Below, in pieces: positions 9,342 through 61,300 of a stretch of 64,000 nt of DNA (the first letter of the stretch is position 1; each line of letters starts with the position of its first letter). A program made the position numbers and the translations under genes. Source of the stretch: a phage; the sequence record PZ452582.1. One strand, written 5' to 3'. The notes beneath the pieces are model-generated. The model worked only from the letters and a program-made list of their open reading frames with translations, did no database searches and was not told the DNA's origin.

Positions 9342-9704
9342 ATGAAAGCATATCAAATTCTTGAAGGCACACATAAAGGTACTATTTATTTTGAAGATGG
9401 TATTCAAGCACGAATTATTGTCTCTAAAACCTTTAAAGAGGACTCTTTTGTAGACCCGGAAATTTTCTACGGTTTGCATGCCCGTGAAATTGAAATTGAA
9501 ACACAACCTACAGTTAAAATTGAAGGTGGTCAACACCTGAACGTTAACGTTCTGCGTCGTGAAACTCTGGAAGATGCAGTTAAGCATCCGGAAAAATATC
9601 CGCAGCTGACCATCCGTGTATCCGGTTATGCAGTTCGCTTTAACTCTCTGACTCCGGAACAGCAGCGCGACGTTATCGCTCGTACCTTTACTGAGAGTTT
9701 GTAA
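9342..9704 (+). CDS. autonomous glycyl-radical cofactor, GrcA/YfiD-like (T4 Y06I-like)
   Basis: C-terminal 63 aa match recalled E. coli GrcA incl. RVSGYAVRF glycyl-radical motif; SD gagg. Confidence 0.85.
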
Positions 9705-9925
9705 TGGCAAAGATAATTATTGAAGGTTCTAAAGATGTGCTAAATGCTTTCGCCAAGTGGTTTAGTAATTCAGGCGAACAGCAATTTAACGAAGCCTGGA
9801 ATATGGGTGATATTGATGGAATTTATCCTACGACAGAAATTTCTGTTCAGGGATATGGCATTCATGAACCTATTCGTTTAGTTGAATATGATTTATGTAC
9901 TGGTGAGGAAGTCAAATATGATTGA
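9704..9925 (+). CDS. hypothetical protein (73 aa)
   Basis: ATG overlapping upstream stop. Confidence 0.5.
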   Translation: MAKIIIEGSKDVLNAFAKWFSNSGEQQFNEAWNMGDIDGIYPTTEISVQGYGIHEPIRLVEYDLCTGEEVKYD

Positions 9926-10990: not shown

Positions 10991-11536
10991 ATGAGAAAAG
11001 CACTACTCGCTGGTCTATTGGCCATTTCAATGATGGCACATAGCTCCGAGCATACTTTCAGTAATGTCCAACTCGATAACATGCGTTACGCGTATCAATT
11101 CGGGGAACAATTTTCTAAGGATGGAAAATATAAAACACACAAAAATATCCACAAGAGCGGATTAGGTCATATAATGGCTGCTATTTTATGGCAAGAAAGC
11201 TCTGGCGGAGTTAATTTAAAATCTAAACCAAAGCATCACGCCTACGGAATGTTCCAAAATTATTTGCCTACTATGCGAGCAAGAGTTAAGGAACTTGGTT
11301 ATAATATGACCGATGCTGAAATAAAAAGAATGTTGAATAAACGGTCCAATTCAGCTTCCTGGGCGTACATTGAACTTTCTTATTGGTTAAATATACATAA
11401 GGGCGATATAAGAAAAGCAATATCCTCTTATAATTCGGGATGGAATGTTAAAGCTGGTTCTAAATATGCTTCTGAAGTCCTAGAAAAGGCTAATTACCTT
11501 AAAAATAATAAACTTTTGGAAATAGTAAATGACTAA
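10991..11536 (+). CDS. secreted lytic transglycosylase-like protein (T4 vs.1-like)
   Basis: Signal peptide MRKALLAGLLAISMMAHS; SLT motifs LWQESSGG and AYGMFQ. Confidence 0.65.
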   Translation: MRKALLAGLLAISMMAHSSEHTFSNVQLDNMRYAYQFGEQFSKDGKYKTHKNIHKSGLGHIMAAILWQESSGGVNLKSKPKHHAYGMFQNYLPTMRARVKELGYNMTDAEIKRMLNKRSNSASWAYIELSYWLNIHKGDIRKAISSYNSGWNVKAGSKYASEVLEKANYLKNNKLLEIVND

Positions 11537-11876
11537 AATTTTGGTTTTATGTATAGGATTAATTTCATTTTCTGCTTCTGCATCAGCAGATACATCATAT
11601 ACTGAAATTAGAGAATATGTAAACCGTACTGCAGCGGATTATTGCGGGAAAAATAAAGCATGCCAAGCTGAATTTGCGCAGAAATTAATATATGCATATA
11701 AAGACGGAGAAAGAGATAAATCAAGCAGATACAAAAATGATACATTGTTAAAACGATATGCTAAAAAGTGGAATACCTTAGAATGTTCAGTTGCGGAGGA
11801 GAAAGATAAAGCCGCTTGTCATTCAATGGTTGACCGTTTGGTAGATTCTTATAATCGAGGATTGAGTACTAGATGA
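11529..11876 (+). CDS. vs: Vs-like protein (valyl-tRNA synthetase modifier position), signal peptide
   Basis: 115 aa at the vs position upstream of tk; N-terminal signal-like segment. Confidence 0.45.
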   Translation: MTKILVLCIGLISFSASASADTSYTEIREYVNRTAADYCGKNKACQAEFAQKLIYAYKDGERDKSSRYKNDTLLKRYAKKWNTLECSVAEEKDKAACHSMVDRLVDSYNRGLSTR

Positions 11877-12352
11877 TTGTAAAATATATCAAGGGCGATA
11901 TTGTCGCCCTATTTCTTCAAGGTAATATTATTGCGCACGGGTGCAATTGTTTTCATACTATGGGTTCAGGTGTAGCTGGTCAATTAGCAAGAGCCTATCC
12001 CAAAATTTTAGAAATAGATAAAACCACTACTGAGTACGGTTCTCGTGATAAATTAGGCGATATGTCTATTGTTTTTAAACATAAACCTAATGGTTTTGGT
12101 ATATGCTATAACCTGTATACGCAATACGAACCAGGTCCTAATCTTGATTATGGTGCTTTAGTAAACTGCATGATAGAATTAAATCTACAGGCAGAAACCC
12201 TTTTGTTTAAACCAGTAATTTACATTCCACGCATAGGTTGTGGTATTGCTGGCGGCGATTGGGATAAGGTTTCTAAATTAATCGACATGTTTACTCCTGA
12301 TATTGATTTAATAGTGGTGGATTATGAAAGTACATTACCCACATCCGTTTGA
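11873..12352 (+). CDS. macro-domain protein (ADP-ribose binding/processing fold)
   Basis: GDIVALF...AHGCNC...GSGVAGQL and IGCGIAGG parallel the macro-domain GDIT/NAAN/GGGV/G-x-G motifs. Confidence 0.6.
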   Translation: MIVKYIKGDIVALFLQGNIIAHGCNCFHTMGSGVAGQLARAYPKILEIDKTTTEYGSRDKLGDMSIVFKHKPNGFGICYNLYTQYEPGPNLDYGALVNCMIELNLQAETLLFKPVIYIPRIGCGIAGGDWDKVSKLIDMFTPDIDLIVVDYESTLPTSV

Positions 12353-12536
12353 TCCTAAAAACAAAGTGGAAATTATTCGTCAATGGGAACGCATTTGCCG
12401 TACTAAATGTCCAATTAATAGTCCACATGATGTAGATAAAGACTACATTGGAACATTCGTTGAATATACCTTTATTGATAAGAAAGGTCGTAAACAACAT
12501 GTAGAAGAATATTGCTTAAAGGTTACATGGTTATGA
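12324..12536 (+). CDS. hypothetical protein (70 aa)
   Basis: ATG ORF overlapping the 3' end of the macro gene by 29 nt. Confidence 0.4.
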   Translation: MKVHYPHPFDPKNKVEIIRQWERICRTKCPINSPHDVDKDYIGTFVEYTFIDKKGRKQHVEEYCLKVTWL

Positions 12537-12739
12537 GCCAAACTAGTATTCTTAAAAATGCCCATTGTGAAAAGTGTAAATGGCCTGTTGTTTTTGCTTT
12601 ATGTAATGATGAAATGGCTTGTGATTTCGATTATTGGTGCTATTGTTCTAATAAAGGATGCATCAATCATAAAGGTGAAGGATTTTATTCAGGATTTTAT
12701 CCTTATCCTGATTTCGTTAAAGAAGGTAAACCAAAATGA
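12527..12739 (+). CDS. Cys-rich small protein (about 70 aa), zinc-finger-like
   Basis: CEKCKW...C-x...CDFDYWCYCSNKGC cysteine clusters; start ATG 12527 or 12533. Confidence 0.45.
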   Translation: MVMSQTSILKNAHCEKCKWPVVFALCNDEMACDFDYWCYCSNKGCINHKGEGFYSGFYPYPDFVKEGKPK

Positions 12740-12909
12740 ATAGTTTTGAGTTACAATACGAAGTGTTACGTGAGCTTGATAATTTAATTGAACTCGCTGT
12801 TAATAAAGGTTTTGCCATTGGAATCGGTCAAAAAGATACTGGTCATTTAACTATGGAAATATTTAAGCAAAAGCGAATTATTTTAAAACTCCTGGAAATT
12901 AATATATGA
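12736..12909 (+). CDS. hypothetical small protein (57 aa)
   Basis: ATGA overlap with upstream stop and with next start; below track size cutoff. Confidence 0.4.
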   Translation: MNSFELQYEVLRELDNLIELAVNKGFAIGIGQKDTGHLTMEIFKQKRIILKLLEINI

Positions 12910-13091
12910 GTCTGAGTAAAGAACAAAAAGATAAATTGTTTGAGCTTATCCATGAACTTCTAGATGAGCATATAGAAGCAAACACCTTTTATGATGAATA
13001 CGGCCCGCTATCTCCCGAACAGCAGGAAGAATTTGCTGATCGGTTTGATAAGAAAGAAAATGAATTAATAGCTTATGTGAATACGCTTTAA
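12906..13091 (+). CDS. hypothetical acidic protein (61 aa)
   Basis: ATG ORF coupled to upstream. Confidence 0.5.
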   Translation: MSLSKEQKDKLFELIHELLDEHIEANTFYDEYGPLSPEQQEEFADRFDKKENELIAYVNTL

Positions 13092-13100
13092 GAAGGTGAT

Positions 13101-13682
13101 ATGGCGAGTTTAATTTTTACTTATGCAGCAATGAATGCTGGAAAATCTGCTTCTCTTTTGACTGCTGCACATAATTATAAAGAACGTGGAATGAGTGTAT
13201 TAGTTCTTAAGCCTGCTATTGATACTCGCGATTCTGTCTGTGAAGTTGTTTCTCGCATTGGAATTAAACAGGAAGCGAATATTATTACAGATGATATGGA
13301 TATTTTCGAGTTCTATAAATGGGCTGAAGCACAAAAAGATATTCATTGCGTATTTGTAGATGAAGCTCAGTTTTTAAAAACTGAACAAGTGCATCAATTA
13401 AGTCGAATTGTTGATACATATAATGTTCCTGTTATGGCTTATGGATTAAGGACTGATTTCGCTGGAAAATTGTTTGAAGGTTCTAAAGAACTTTTAGCGA
13501 TTGCAGATAAACTTATTGAACTAAAGGCAGTTTGTCATTGCGGCAAAAAAGCGATTATGACAGCTCGATTAATGGAAGATGGAACACCAGTTAAAGAAGG
13601 TAATCAAATCTGTATTGGTGATGAAATTTATGTTTCTTTGTGTAGAAAACATTGGAATGAATTAACTAAAAAGCTCGGTTAG
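13101..13682 (+). CDS. tk: thymidine kinase
   Basis: 193 aa; P-loop NAGKSASLL; strong similarity to recalled T4 Tk. Confidence 0.95.
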   Translation: MASLIFTYAAMNAGKSASLLTAAHNYKERGMSVLVLKPAIDTRDSVCEVVSRIGIKQEANIITDDMDIFEFYKWAEAQKDIHCVFVDEAQFLKTEQVHQLSRIVDTYNVPVMAYGLRTDFAGKLFEGSKELLAIADKLIELKAVCHCGKKAIMTARLMEDGTPVKEGNQICIGDEIYVSLCRKHWNELTKKLG

Positions 13683-60077: not shown

Positions 60078-60701
60078 ATGATTATTAATCCTGCAGATGT
60101 TGAACAGTTATCTATAAAAGCTGAAAGCGTTGATTTTCAATATGATATGTATAAAAAAGTCTGTGAAAAATTTACTGACTTCGAGCAGTCTGTTCTTTGG
60201 CAATGTATGGAAGCCAAAAAGAATGAAGCTCTTCACAGACAGTTGAATAAAATCATTAAAAAGCATTTAACTAAATCGCCTTATCAATTATATCGTGGTA
60301 TATCAAAATCGACAAAAGAACTTATTAAAGATTTACAGGTTGGAGAAGTGTTTTCAACGAACAGGGTAGATTCATTTACTACTAGTTTACACACAGCGTG
60401 TTCTTTTTCTTATGCTGAATATTTCACTGAAACAATACTTCATTTAAAAACTGATAAAGCTTTTAATTATTCTGACCATATCAGCGATATTATACTTTCT
60501 TCTCCTAATACTGAGTTTAAGTATACATATGAAGATACTGATGGATTAGATTCAGAGCGTACTGATAACTTAATGATGATTGTGCATGAACAAGAATGGA
60601 TGATTCCAATTGGAAAGTATAAAATAACTTCTATTTCAAAAGAAAAATTACACGATTCATTTGGAACATTTAAAGTTTATGATATTGAGGTAATTGAATG
60701 A
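60078..60701 (+). CDS. modB: ADP-ribosyltransferase (ModB-like, 207 aa)
   Basis: R-S-EXE-like triad: LYRG, FTTS, EQEWMIP; modA/modB assignment is by length only. Confidence 0.6.
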   Translation: MIINPADVEQLSIKAESVDFQYDMYKKVCEKFTDFEQSVLWQCMEAKKNEALHRQLNKIIKKHLTKSPYQLYRGISKSTKELIKDLQVGEVFSTNRVDSFTTSLHTACSFSYAEYFTETILHLKTDKAFNYSDHISDIILSSPNTEFKYTYEDTDGLDSERTDNLMMIVHEQEWMIPIGKYKITSISKEKLHDSFGTFKVYDIEVIE

Positions 60702-61300
60702 AATACTCAGTAATGCAACTAAAAGATTTTAAAATAAAATCAATGGATGCATCGGTGCGTGCTTCTATTCGTGAAGAATTACTTTCTGAAGGGTTTAATT
60801 TATCTGAAATTGAACTTTTAATTCATTGTATTACCAACAAACCAGATGACCATACTTGGTTAAATGAAATAATCAAATCTCGTTTGGTTCCAAACGATAA
60901 ACCTCTTTGGAGAGGTGTTCCAGCTGAGACTAAGCAGGTGTTAAATCAAGGAATTGATATTATTACATTTGATAAAGTCGTATCAGCTTCATATGATAAA
61001 AATATAGCTCTACATTTTGCTTCCGGTTTAGAGTATAACACACAAGTTATTTTTGAATTCAAAGCTCCTATGGTATTCAATTTCCAGGAGTATGCTATAA
61101 AAGCTCTACGCTGTAAAGAATACAATCCAAACTTTAAGTTTCCGGATAGCCATCGTTATCGTAATATGGAATTAGTTTCAGATGAACAAGAAGTAATGAT
61201 ACCAGCTGGAAGTGTATTTAGAATTGCAGATAGATATGAGTATAAAAAGTATTCAACATACACTATCTATACTCTTGATTTTGAAGGATTTAATCTATAA
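60698..61300 (+). CDS. modA: ADP-ribosyltransferase (ModA-like, 200 aa)
   Basis: LWRG, SAS, EQEVMIP motifs; paralog of upstream gene. Confidence 0.6.
   Translation: MKYSVMQLKDFKIKSMDASVRASIREELLSEGFNLSEIELLIHCITNKPDDHTWLNEIIKSRLVPNDKPLWRGVPAETKQVLNQGIDIITFDKVVSASYDKNIALHFASGLEYNTQVIFEFKAPMVFNFQEYAIKALRCKEYNPNFKFPDSHRYRNMELVSDEQEVMIPAGSVFRIADRYEYKKYSTYTIYTLDFEGFNL

Follow-up and report, generated by a model that had tools for sequence, protein, structure and literature searches.

The open reading frame (ORF) between vs and tk.3 in phage sequence record PZ452582.1 is the positional ortholog of T4 tk.4 (adfM), and it encodes a macrodomain protein that is probably an orphan antitoxin-like glycohydrolase, removing DarT2-attached ADP-ribose from thymidine in single-stranded phage DNA by means of a Gln84/Asn25 site. 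The window, by which we mean the whole stretch of DNA analyzed (64,000 nucleotides), is from a Tequatrovirus. The gene is a long-annotated T-even gene whose macro domain and anti-DarTG2 role have already been published, so neither the gene nor its function is new. Beyond the literature, the analysis points to a Gln84 active site, to a distance from the AdfM of phage PhiKZ, and to a sharply bounded divergent allele.

Published work on T4 tk.4

The A1pp/macro domain of tk.4 orthologs was described when T4-like genomes were compared in 2006 (PMC1524935), and the T4 protein (NP_049723) is annotated "phosphatase; contains A1pp phosphatase motif." T4 without adfA and adfN was still fully resistant to DarTG2 (PMC11825919). 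That gap was filled by the HIDEN-SEQ preprint of November 2025, in which tk.4 was the single significant hit when a T4 transposon library was screened on a DarTG2 host (bioRxiv 10.1101/2025.11.20.689424). A clean tk.4 knockout sensitized T4 to DarTG2, and the gene was renamed adfM, for anti-DarT factor Macrodomain; it was not needed on plain E. coli K-12 and mattered only with DarTG2, and removal of ADP-ribose from DNA was proposed by analogy (bioRxiv 10.1101/2025.11.20.689424). No enzymatic assay of any Tk.4 protein was found in the literature, and the evidence for T4, reported in a preprint, is genetic.

The window ORF is the positional ortholog of tk.4

The sequence-only reading had described a 159-aa ORF with macro-domain motifs in the vs-tk interval, and both the ORF and its location were borne out (Table 1). 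Read from the sequence, the motifs are GDIV (aa 8-11), AHGCNC (21-26), GSGVAGQL (31-38), and IGCGIAGG (121-128). The ORF is not a chance one, since its product matched Pfam (see below), PHROG 335 (E 1.4e-71), 794 homologs in a large protein database, and, by tblastn, 2,774 of 50,697 phage records. Overlapping minus-strand ORFs (e.g., 12291-12500, 69 aa) had no support and were set aside.

The T4 reference and the window are collinear around the gene, in the order regB, vs.1, vs, the ORF, tk.3, a variable stretch, tk, rI.1, and rI, which identifies the ORF as the tk.4 ortholog, an identity that the sequence-only reading had missed. Protein identities to T4 were 99.3% (regB), 100% (vs.1), 100% (vs), 57% (tk.4), 92.9% (tk.3), 99.5% (tk), 98.6% (rI.1), and 100% (rI). 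The alignment to T4 Tk.4 (155 aa) was full length, covering 155 aa without gaps (E 1e-69). The two proteins have the same slot (vs - tk.4 - tk.3), similar sizes (155 and 159 aa), and the same invariant motifs (GD, HGCNC, GxGxA, NLYTQ, PxIGxG, and W130). They differ in that the window protein has a C-terminus 4 residues longer, so that its gene runs 29 nt into tk.3, in another frame, whereas the T4 overlap is a 4-nt ATGA. The extra C-terminal residues, TLPTSV, were the sole low-confidence part of the predicted structure. All 480 bases of the gene are 100% identical in many Tequatrovirus genomes, including PhiZZ23, teqhal, Shinka, and REP1.

At the other end of the gene, the start codon overlaps the vs stop codon, and this ATGA overlap suggests that translation of tk.4 may be coupled to that of vs. 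In a promoter scan, sigma-70-like sites were not above shuffled sequence (17 versus 20.1 +/- 5.3).

Other parts of the window also differ from T4. T4 tk.1 has no counterpart; a 75-aa and a 57-aa ORF stand in its place, in a second divergent region that also carries a tk.2-like ORF. T4 Vs.5 (58 aa) is split, with residues 1-17 matching 9704-9754 and residues 17-58 matching 9753-9878 in another frame, apparently a frameshift relative to the annotated T4 gene. The ADP-ribosyltransferases that the sequence-only reading had placed at 60078-61300 were recovered as modA/modB orthologs. They share 99.1% identity with modA/modB as annotated in phage RB18, and each matched phrog_832 "RNA polymerase ADP-ribosylase" (E 1e-41 and 1e-33); Pfam gave no matches for either.

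Table 1. Features of the window around the tk.4 ortholog and elsewhere
Feature	Position	Strand	Remarks
73-aa ORF at vs.5	9704-9925		
45-aa ORF at vs.5	9744-9881		overlaps the 73-aa ORF
vs	11529-11876		
Shine-Dalgarno-like GAGGA	11857..11861	+	11 nt upstream of the ATG; seen in the sequence itself
ATGA overlap	11873-11876		vs stop and tk.4-ortholog start
tk.4/adfM ortholog	11873..12352	+	159 aa, ATG start, single-domain macrodomain protein
Perfect hairpin	11892-11910		AGGGCGATATTGTCGCCCT; 8-bp stem, 3-nt loop; tk.4 codons 7-13
Divergent patch versus T4	11911..12357	+	from pairwise alignment and sliding identity
HGCNC motif (H22-C26)	11936..11950	+	H22, G23, N25, C26 invariant in 50 homologs
GSGVAGQL glycine-rich loop (aa 31-38)	11963..11986	+	G33, A35 invariant
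NLYTQ motif (aa 80-84)	12110..12124	+	N80, Y82, Q84 invariant
PRIGCGIAGG loop (aa 119-128)	12227..12256	+	second phosphate-binding loop, predicted from alignment
tk.4/tk.3 overlap	12324-12352		tk.3 start at 12324
75-aa ORF	12512-12739		phage zinc-binding domain PF23895; in place of tk.1
Second divergent stretch	12538-13100		in place of tk.1
57-aa ORF	12736-12909		phrog_3452; in place of tk.1
tk.2-like ORF	12906-13091		DUF7438; only 54% identical to T4 Tk.2 (flanking tk.3/tk 93-99.5%)
tk	13101-13682		
modA/modB orthologs	60078-61300		two adjacent ORFs, 207 and 200 aa

The protein is a macrodomain of the TARG1/DarG class

The Pfam Macro profile (PF01661) was matched at 33.1 bits against a gathering cut-off of 22 (E 6.2e-8, profile positions 2-117 of 118), and structure prediction with a fold search showed a three-layer alpha/beta/alpha macro fold. 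Both lines of evidence confirmed the macro fold, on whose absence the sequence-only reading would have been withdrawn. The best Foldseek match of the predicted structure was human TARG1 (OARD1/C6orf130; E 2e-10, TM 0.72-0.82), and the nearest structural and sequence neighbors were members of the TARG1/DarG/SCO6735/Poa1p class. The figures given beside class members, which carry no column label, were 18.5 for BT1257, 17.5 for Mycobacterium tuberculosis DarG, 17.2 for Poa1p, 16.7 for TARG1, and 16.6 for Thermosipho DarTG. The protein belongs to this (ALC1-like) class and not to the MacroD, PARG, or viral macro classes. Its conserved glycine-rich loops predict ADP-ribose binding.

The active site is predicted to be of the glutamine type

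Fifteen positions were invariant in 50 homologs with 41-81% identity: G8, H22, G23, N25, C26, G33, A35, D49, N80, Y82, Q84, P119, G122, G124, and W130. The GSGVAGQL loop aligned with MGAGIAV of TARG1 and WGKGFVL of BT1257 and, by its role in the family, would form the first ADP-ribose/phosphate-binding loop. In the PRIGCGIAGG loop, A126, G127, and G128 were at least 90% conserved, in addition to the invariant P119, G122, and G124.

Profile alignment of the family, with which MAFFT agreed, placed NLYTQ84 opposite YLITK84 of TARG1 and NMIGQ of BT1257. A phmmer alignment to BT1257 had set NLYTQ against HGIYKD, a placement that the profile alignment corrected. IGCGIA126GG aligned to IGCGLD125RL of TARG1 (in PRIGCGLDRL), with A126 at the position of the catalytic Asp125. 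On these alignments, the Tk.4 family is without the Lys/Asp dyad of TARG1 and without the lysine common to DarG and TARG1, and has instead the glutamine of BT1257 and SCO6735. The same class includes TARG1, which also reverses thymidine-ADP-ribosylation but has a Lys84/Asp125 dyad where the window protein has Gln84/Ala126. In the DarG proteins of DarTG2 systems (Thermus aquaticus, M. tuberculosis, and Thermosipho africanus), the catalytic residue is Lys80.

The glutamine-type site matters because an enzyme of this type, SCO6735 of Streptomyces coelicolor, hydrolyzes DarT-made thymidine-ADP-ribose on DNA and rescues DarT toxicity (PMC9411070). Neither Gln85 (equivalent to TARG1 K84 and DarG K80) nor Asn27 is dispensable in this enzyme, for which a water-mediated mechanism was put forward (PMC9411070). 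Both the glutamine at this position (Q84) and the orienting asparagine (N25) are present in the window protein and invariant in the 50 homologs; N25 would correspond to the conserved macrodomain asparagine (SCO6735 Asn27) that positions the catalytic-site glutamine. The active site thus appears to be of the SCO6735/BT1257 type and not of the DarG type, a detail that goes beyond the literature.

The resemblance to these stand-alone glutamine-type macrodomains has limits. The window protein is only 26-29% identical to SCO6735 and to BT1257 of Bacteroides thetaiotaomicron, and it does not have their long mobile loop, which exceeds that of DarG and TARG1 by ~5 residues; BT1257 has 6 more residues after the glutamine, so that the loop of the phage protein is ~6 residues shorter. 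The longer loop has been deemed characteristic of the SCO6735 subclass and linked to DNA binding (PMC9411070). The genetic settings also differ: SCO6735 is a chromosomal, DNA-damage-inducible gene, whereas the window gene is phage-encoded with a probable counter-defense role.

Tk.4 differs from DarG and from the PhiKZ protein of the same name

PADLOC returned a single match, to DarG (4e-7). Assignment as a DarG antitoxin was rejected: the best NCBIfam match, the DarG equivalog NF048014, scored 27.8 bits against a cut-off of 250, and the 159-aa protein matched profile positions 2-145 of 329/338, that is, the N-terminal macro half, with the C-terminal DarT-binding domain absent. No darT lies beside the gene, whose neighbors are vs, vs.1, tk.3, and small phage ORFs. 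On the chromosome of Pelagimonas phthalicica, a 40%-identical homolog (L002 6001-6459) stands alone among unrelated genes, and neither darT nor phage genes lie close to it. Together, the failed cut-off, the absence of the DarT-binding domain and of darT, and the free-standing Pelagimonas homolog suggest that the Tk.4 family is a stand-alone glutamine-type lineage related to free-standing bacterial macrodomains, not a clipped DarG.

The name AdfM has also been given to PhiKZ gp104, a stand-alone phage macrodomain active against DarTG2, for which biochemical work demonstrated removal of DarT2-made ADP-ribose from DNA; gp104 is imported into the phage nucleus (Cell Rep 2026, PMC13309987). A translation of the published construct showed that gp104 carries the DarG-type lysine motif FPTK, where the window protein has NLYTQ. 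Similarity between the two was limited to a BLASTP match over 33 residues (E 1e-3) and an hhalign probability of 96.5%, and around the catalytic position the alignment to this DarG-type protein was off by two residues with hhalign as well as with MAFFT and was unreliable. Because of this ambiguity, the equivalence with DarG K80 was taken from the alignments to TARG1 and BT1257, together with a published alignment based on structures. T4 Tk.4, of the glutamine type and with genetic evidence, and PhiKZ gp104, of the DarG-like lysine type and with biochemical evidence, are two separate macrodomain lineages with apparently the same purpose, both called AdfM.

A further counter-DarT factor of T-even phages is T4 AdfN (gp30.3, NADAR), an orphan antitoxin-like ADP-ribosylglycohydrolase that reverses DarT-made DNA damage (PMC11825919). 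Its strategy is that of Tk.4, but its fold (NADAR) is unrelated, its target is guanosine-ADP-ribose from DarT1, and it does not counter DarTG2. Judged by its map position in T4, adfN presumably lies outside the 64-kb window.

The gene is a sharply bounded allelic patch

Nucleotide identity to T4 was 100% up to position 11910, ~82% over 11891-12010, 45-70% over 12011-12357, and 95-100% from ~12418. The tk.4 gene body is accordingly ~50% identical to T4 inside flanks that are 98-100% identical. The left edge of the patch is a perfect hairpin near the start of the gene, since identity to T4 is 100% through the last hairpin base and then falls at once. The hairpin, which is followed by a T-rich run, is identical in T4.

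At 90% nucleotide identity or more, the window-type allele occurs in ~295 phage records and the T4-type allele in ~225. The two alleles (57% amino acid identity, each in more than 200 phage records) swap within near-identical T-even genomes, and they share the ligand-binding and catalytic motifs, with the differences falling between these motifs. The patch shows the mosaic pattern familiar in T-even genomes and is compatible with, though no proof of, diversifying selection on a counter-defense gene. A more far-reaching proposal is that the alleles differ in function, whether in the DarT2 variants or adducts that they handle (thymidine in DNA, uracil in RNA, or others) or in evasion of a host factor directed against AdfM, and that the family forms a third, short-loop, glutamine-type catalytic variant in the TARG1/DarG class; we consider this unlikely.

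Proposed function and alternatives

During infection, DarT2 of a host DarTG2 system puts ADP-ribose on thymidines of single-stranded phage DNA and so blocks replication. In the mechanism that we favor, Tk.4 would bind the ADP-ribosyl-thymidine and cleave the glycosidic bond, so that the ADP-ribose is freed and the base is unmodified again. Q84 would be held by N25, as Gln85 is by Asn27 in SCO6735, and not replaced by a lysine as in DarG (K80) or TARG1 (K84/D125). A site of this type implies that catalysis would depend on how the substrate is positioned and on an activated water, with no lysine acting as nucleophile or base. This reading joins what was determined here (the ORF, its macro fold and class, its orthology and synteny with T4 tk.4, and its active-site residues) to two published results, the DarTG2 sensitivity of the T4 tk.4 knockout and the hydrolysis of thymidine-ADP-ribose by SCO6735. 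It fits the sequence-only reading of the protein as an eraser of ADP-ribosylation with an anti-defense role, DarTG included, a reading that agrees with the published sensitivity of the T4 knockout to DarTG2. By analogy, the window allele would have the same activity and substrate as the T4 allele, with which it shares just 57% identity. The missing longer loop of the SCO6735 subclass and the two-residue ambiguity of the DarG-type alignment at the catalytic position also count against the reading. Moreover, class members act on Glu/Asp-linked protein ADP-ribose, on uracil-ADP-ribose in RNA (PMC13036486), and on ADP-ribose-1''-phosphate (Poa1p), so that substrate range is not readable from sequence.

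Five other functions were weighed, each of which has little specific support. Tk.4 could erase protein ADP-ribosylation, either tuning the marks made by the phage's own Alt, ModA, and ModB or reversing a protein-targeting host ADP-ribosyltransferase toxin. Alt and ModA/ModB are arginine-specific, and no TARG1-class macrodomain is known to cleave Arg-ADP-ribose. That the phage encodes ModA/ModB and that TARG1 and SCO6735 also cleave Glu/Asp-linked protein mono-ADP-ribose (PMC9411070) speak for such a role, but modA/modB are 48 kb off with no genomic linkage, and the preprint found tk.4 important only with DarTG2. Nothing supported the link to ModA/ModB drawn by the sequence-only reading, and we rate protein targets as highly improbable. 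A similarly low probability attaches to an ADP-ribose-1''-phosphate phosphatase or another enzyme of ADP-ribose metabolites, the reading behind the old "A1pp phosphatase" label. That label came from domain naming and not from an assay, and loss of the gene in T4 has a phenotype specific to a defense that ADP-ribosylates DNA. Appr-1''-p arises as a by-product when tRNA is spliced by the Tpt1-type route, and RNA repair by Pnkp/Rnl1 in T4 is not known to generate it, which also counts against a phosphatase. The NAD-derived immune signals considered in the sequence-only reading, such as the gcADPR or His-ADPR of Thoeris, make an extremely unlikely substrate: the protein did not specifically resemble any enzyme known to degrade such signals, its nearest relatives, without exception, are enzymes (glycohydrolases or phosphatases) that work on ADP-ribose adducts, the one screen in which tk.4 was a significant hit was that with DarTG2, and no Thoeris phenotype for tk.4 was found in the literature.

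Two alternatives lie closer to the glycohydrolase reading. DarT2 reversal could be one activity of a broader nucleic-acid de-ADP-ribosylase that also acts on RNA (uracil-ADP-ribose) or other base adducts, with alleles that differ in range; we regard this as quite unlikely, although less so than the other four. TARG1, DarG, and SCO6735 all reverse uracil-ADP-ribose on single-stranded RNA (PMC13036486), and two 57%-identical alleles coexist in nearly identical genomes. Against this, the two alleles have identical catalytic and binding motifs, the literature consulted described no bacterial defense acting by uracil ADP-ribosylation of RNA, and CmdTAC, which ADP-ribosylates mRNA, is reported to defend robustly against T-even phages (PMC11618068). 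From the wide distribution of tk.4 among tequatroviruses, the phages restricted by CmdTAC would be expected to carry the gene. A check of the CmdTAC paper for macrodomains turned up mentions in its reference list only. Finally, protection could come mainly from stoichiometric binding and inhibition of DarT2 rather than from hydrolysis, given that catalytically dead SCO6735 Q85A, DarG K80A, and TARG1 K84A inhibit DarT in vitro, SCO6735 most strongly (PMC9411070). The 159-aa protein is without the C-terminal DarT-binding domain of DarG, however, and the strict conservation of the active site across phages and bacteria argues for catalysis, leaving inhibition a very doubtful main mode of action.

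Implications

A reading of raw sequence singled out a genuine counter-defense gene, one that is a catalogued T-even ORF. The Tk.4 family, usually compared with the lysine site of DarG, appears to have a glutamine site of the SCO6735 type. Since two distinct lineages are named AdfM, functional claims are not transferable between them without testing. Within the T-even phages, the sharp allelic patch provides a handy natural experiment on the specificity of the protein.
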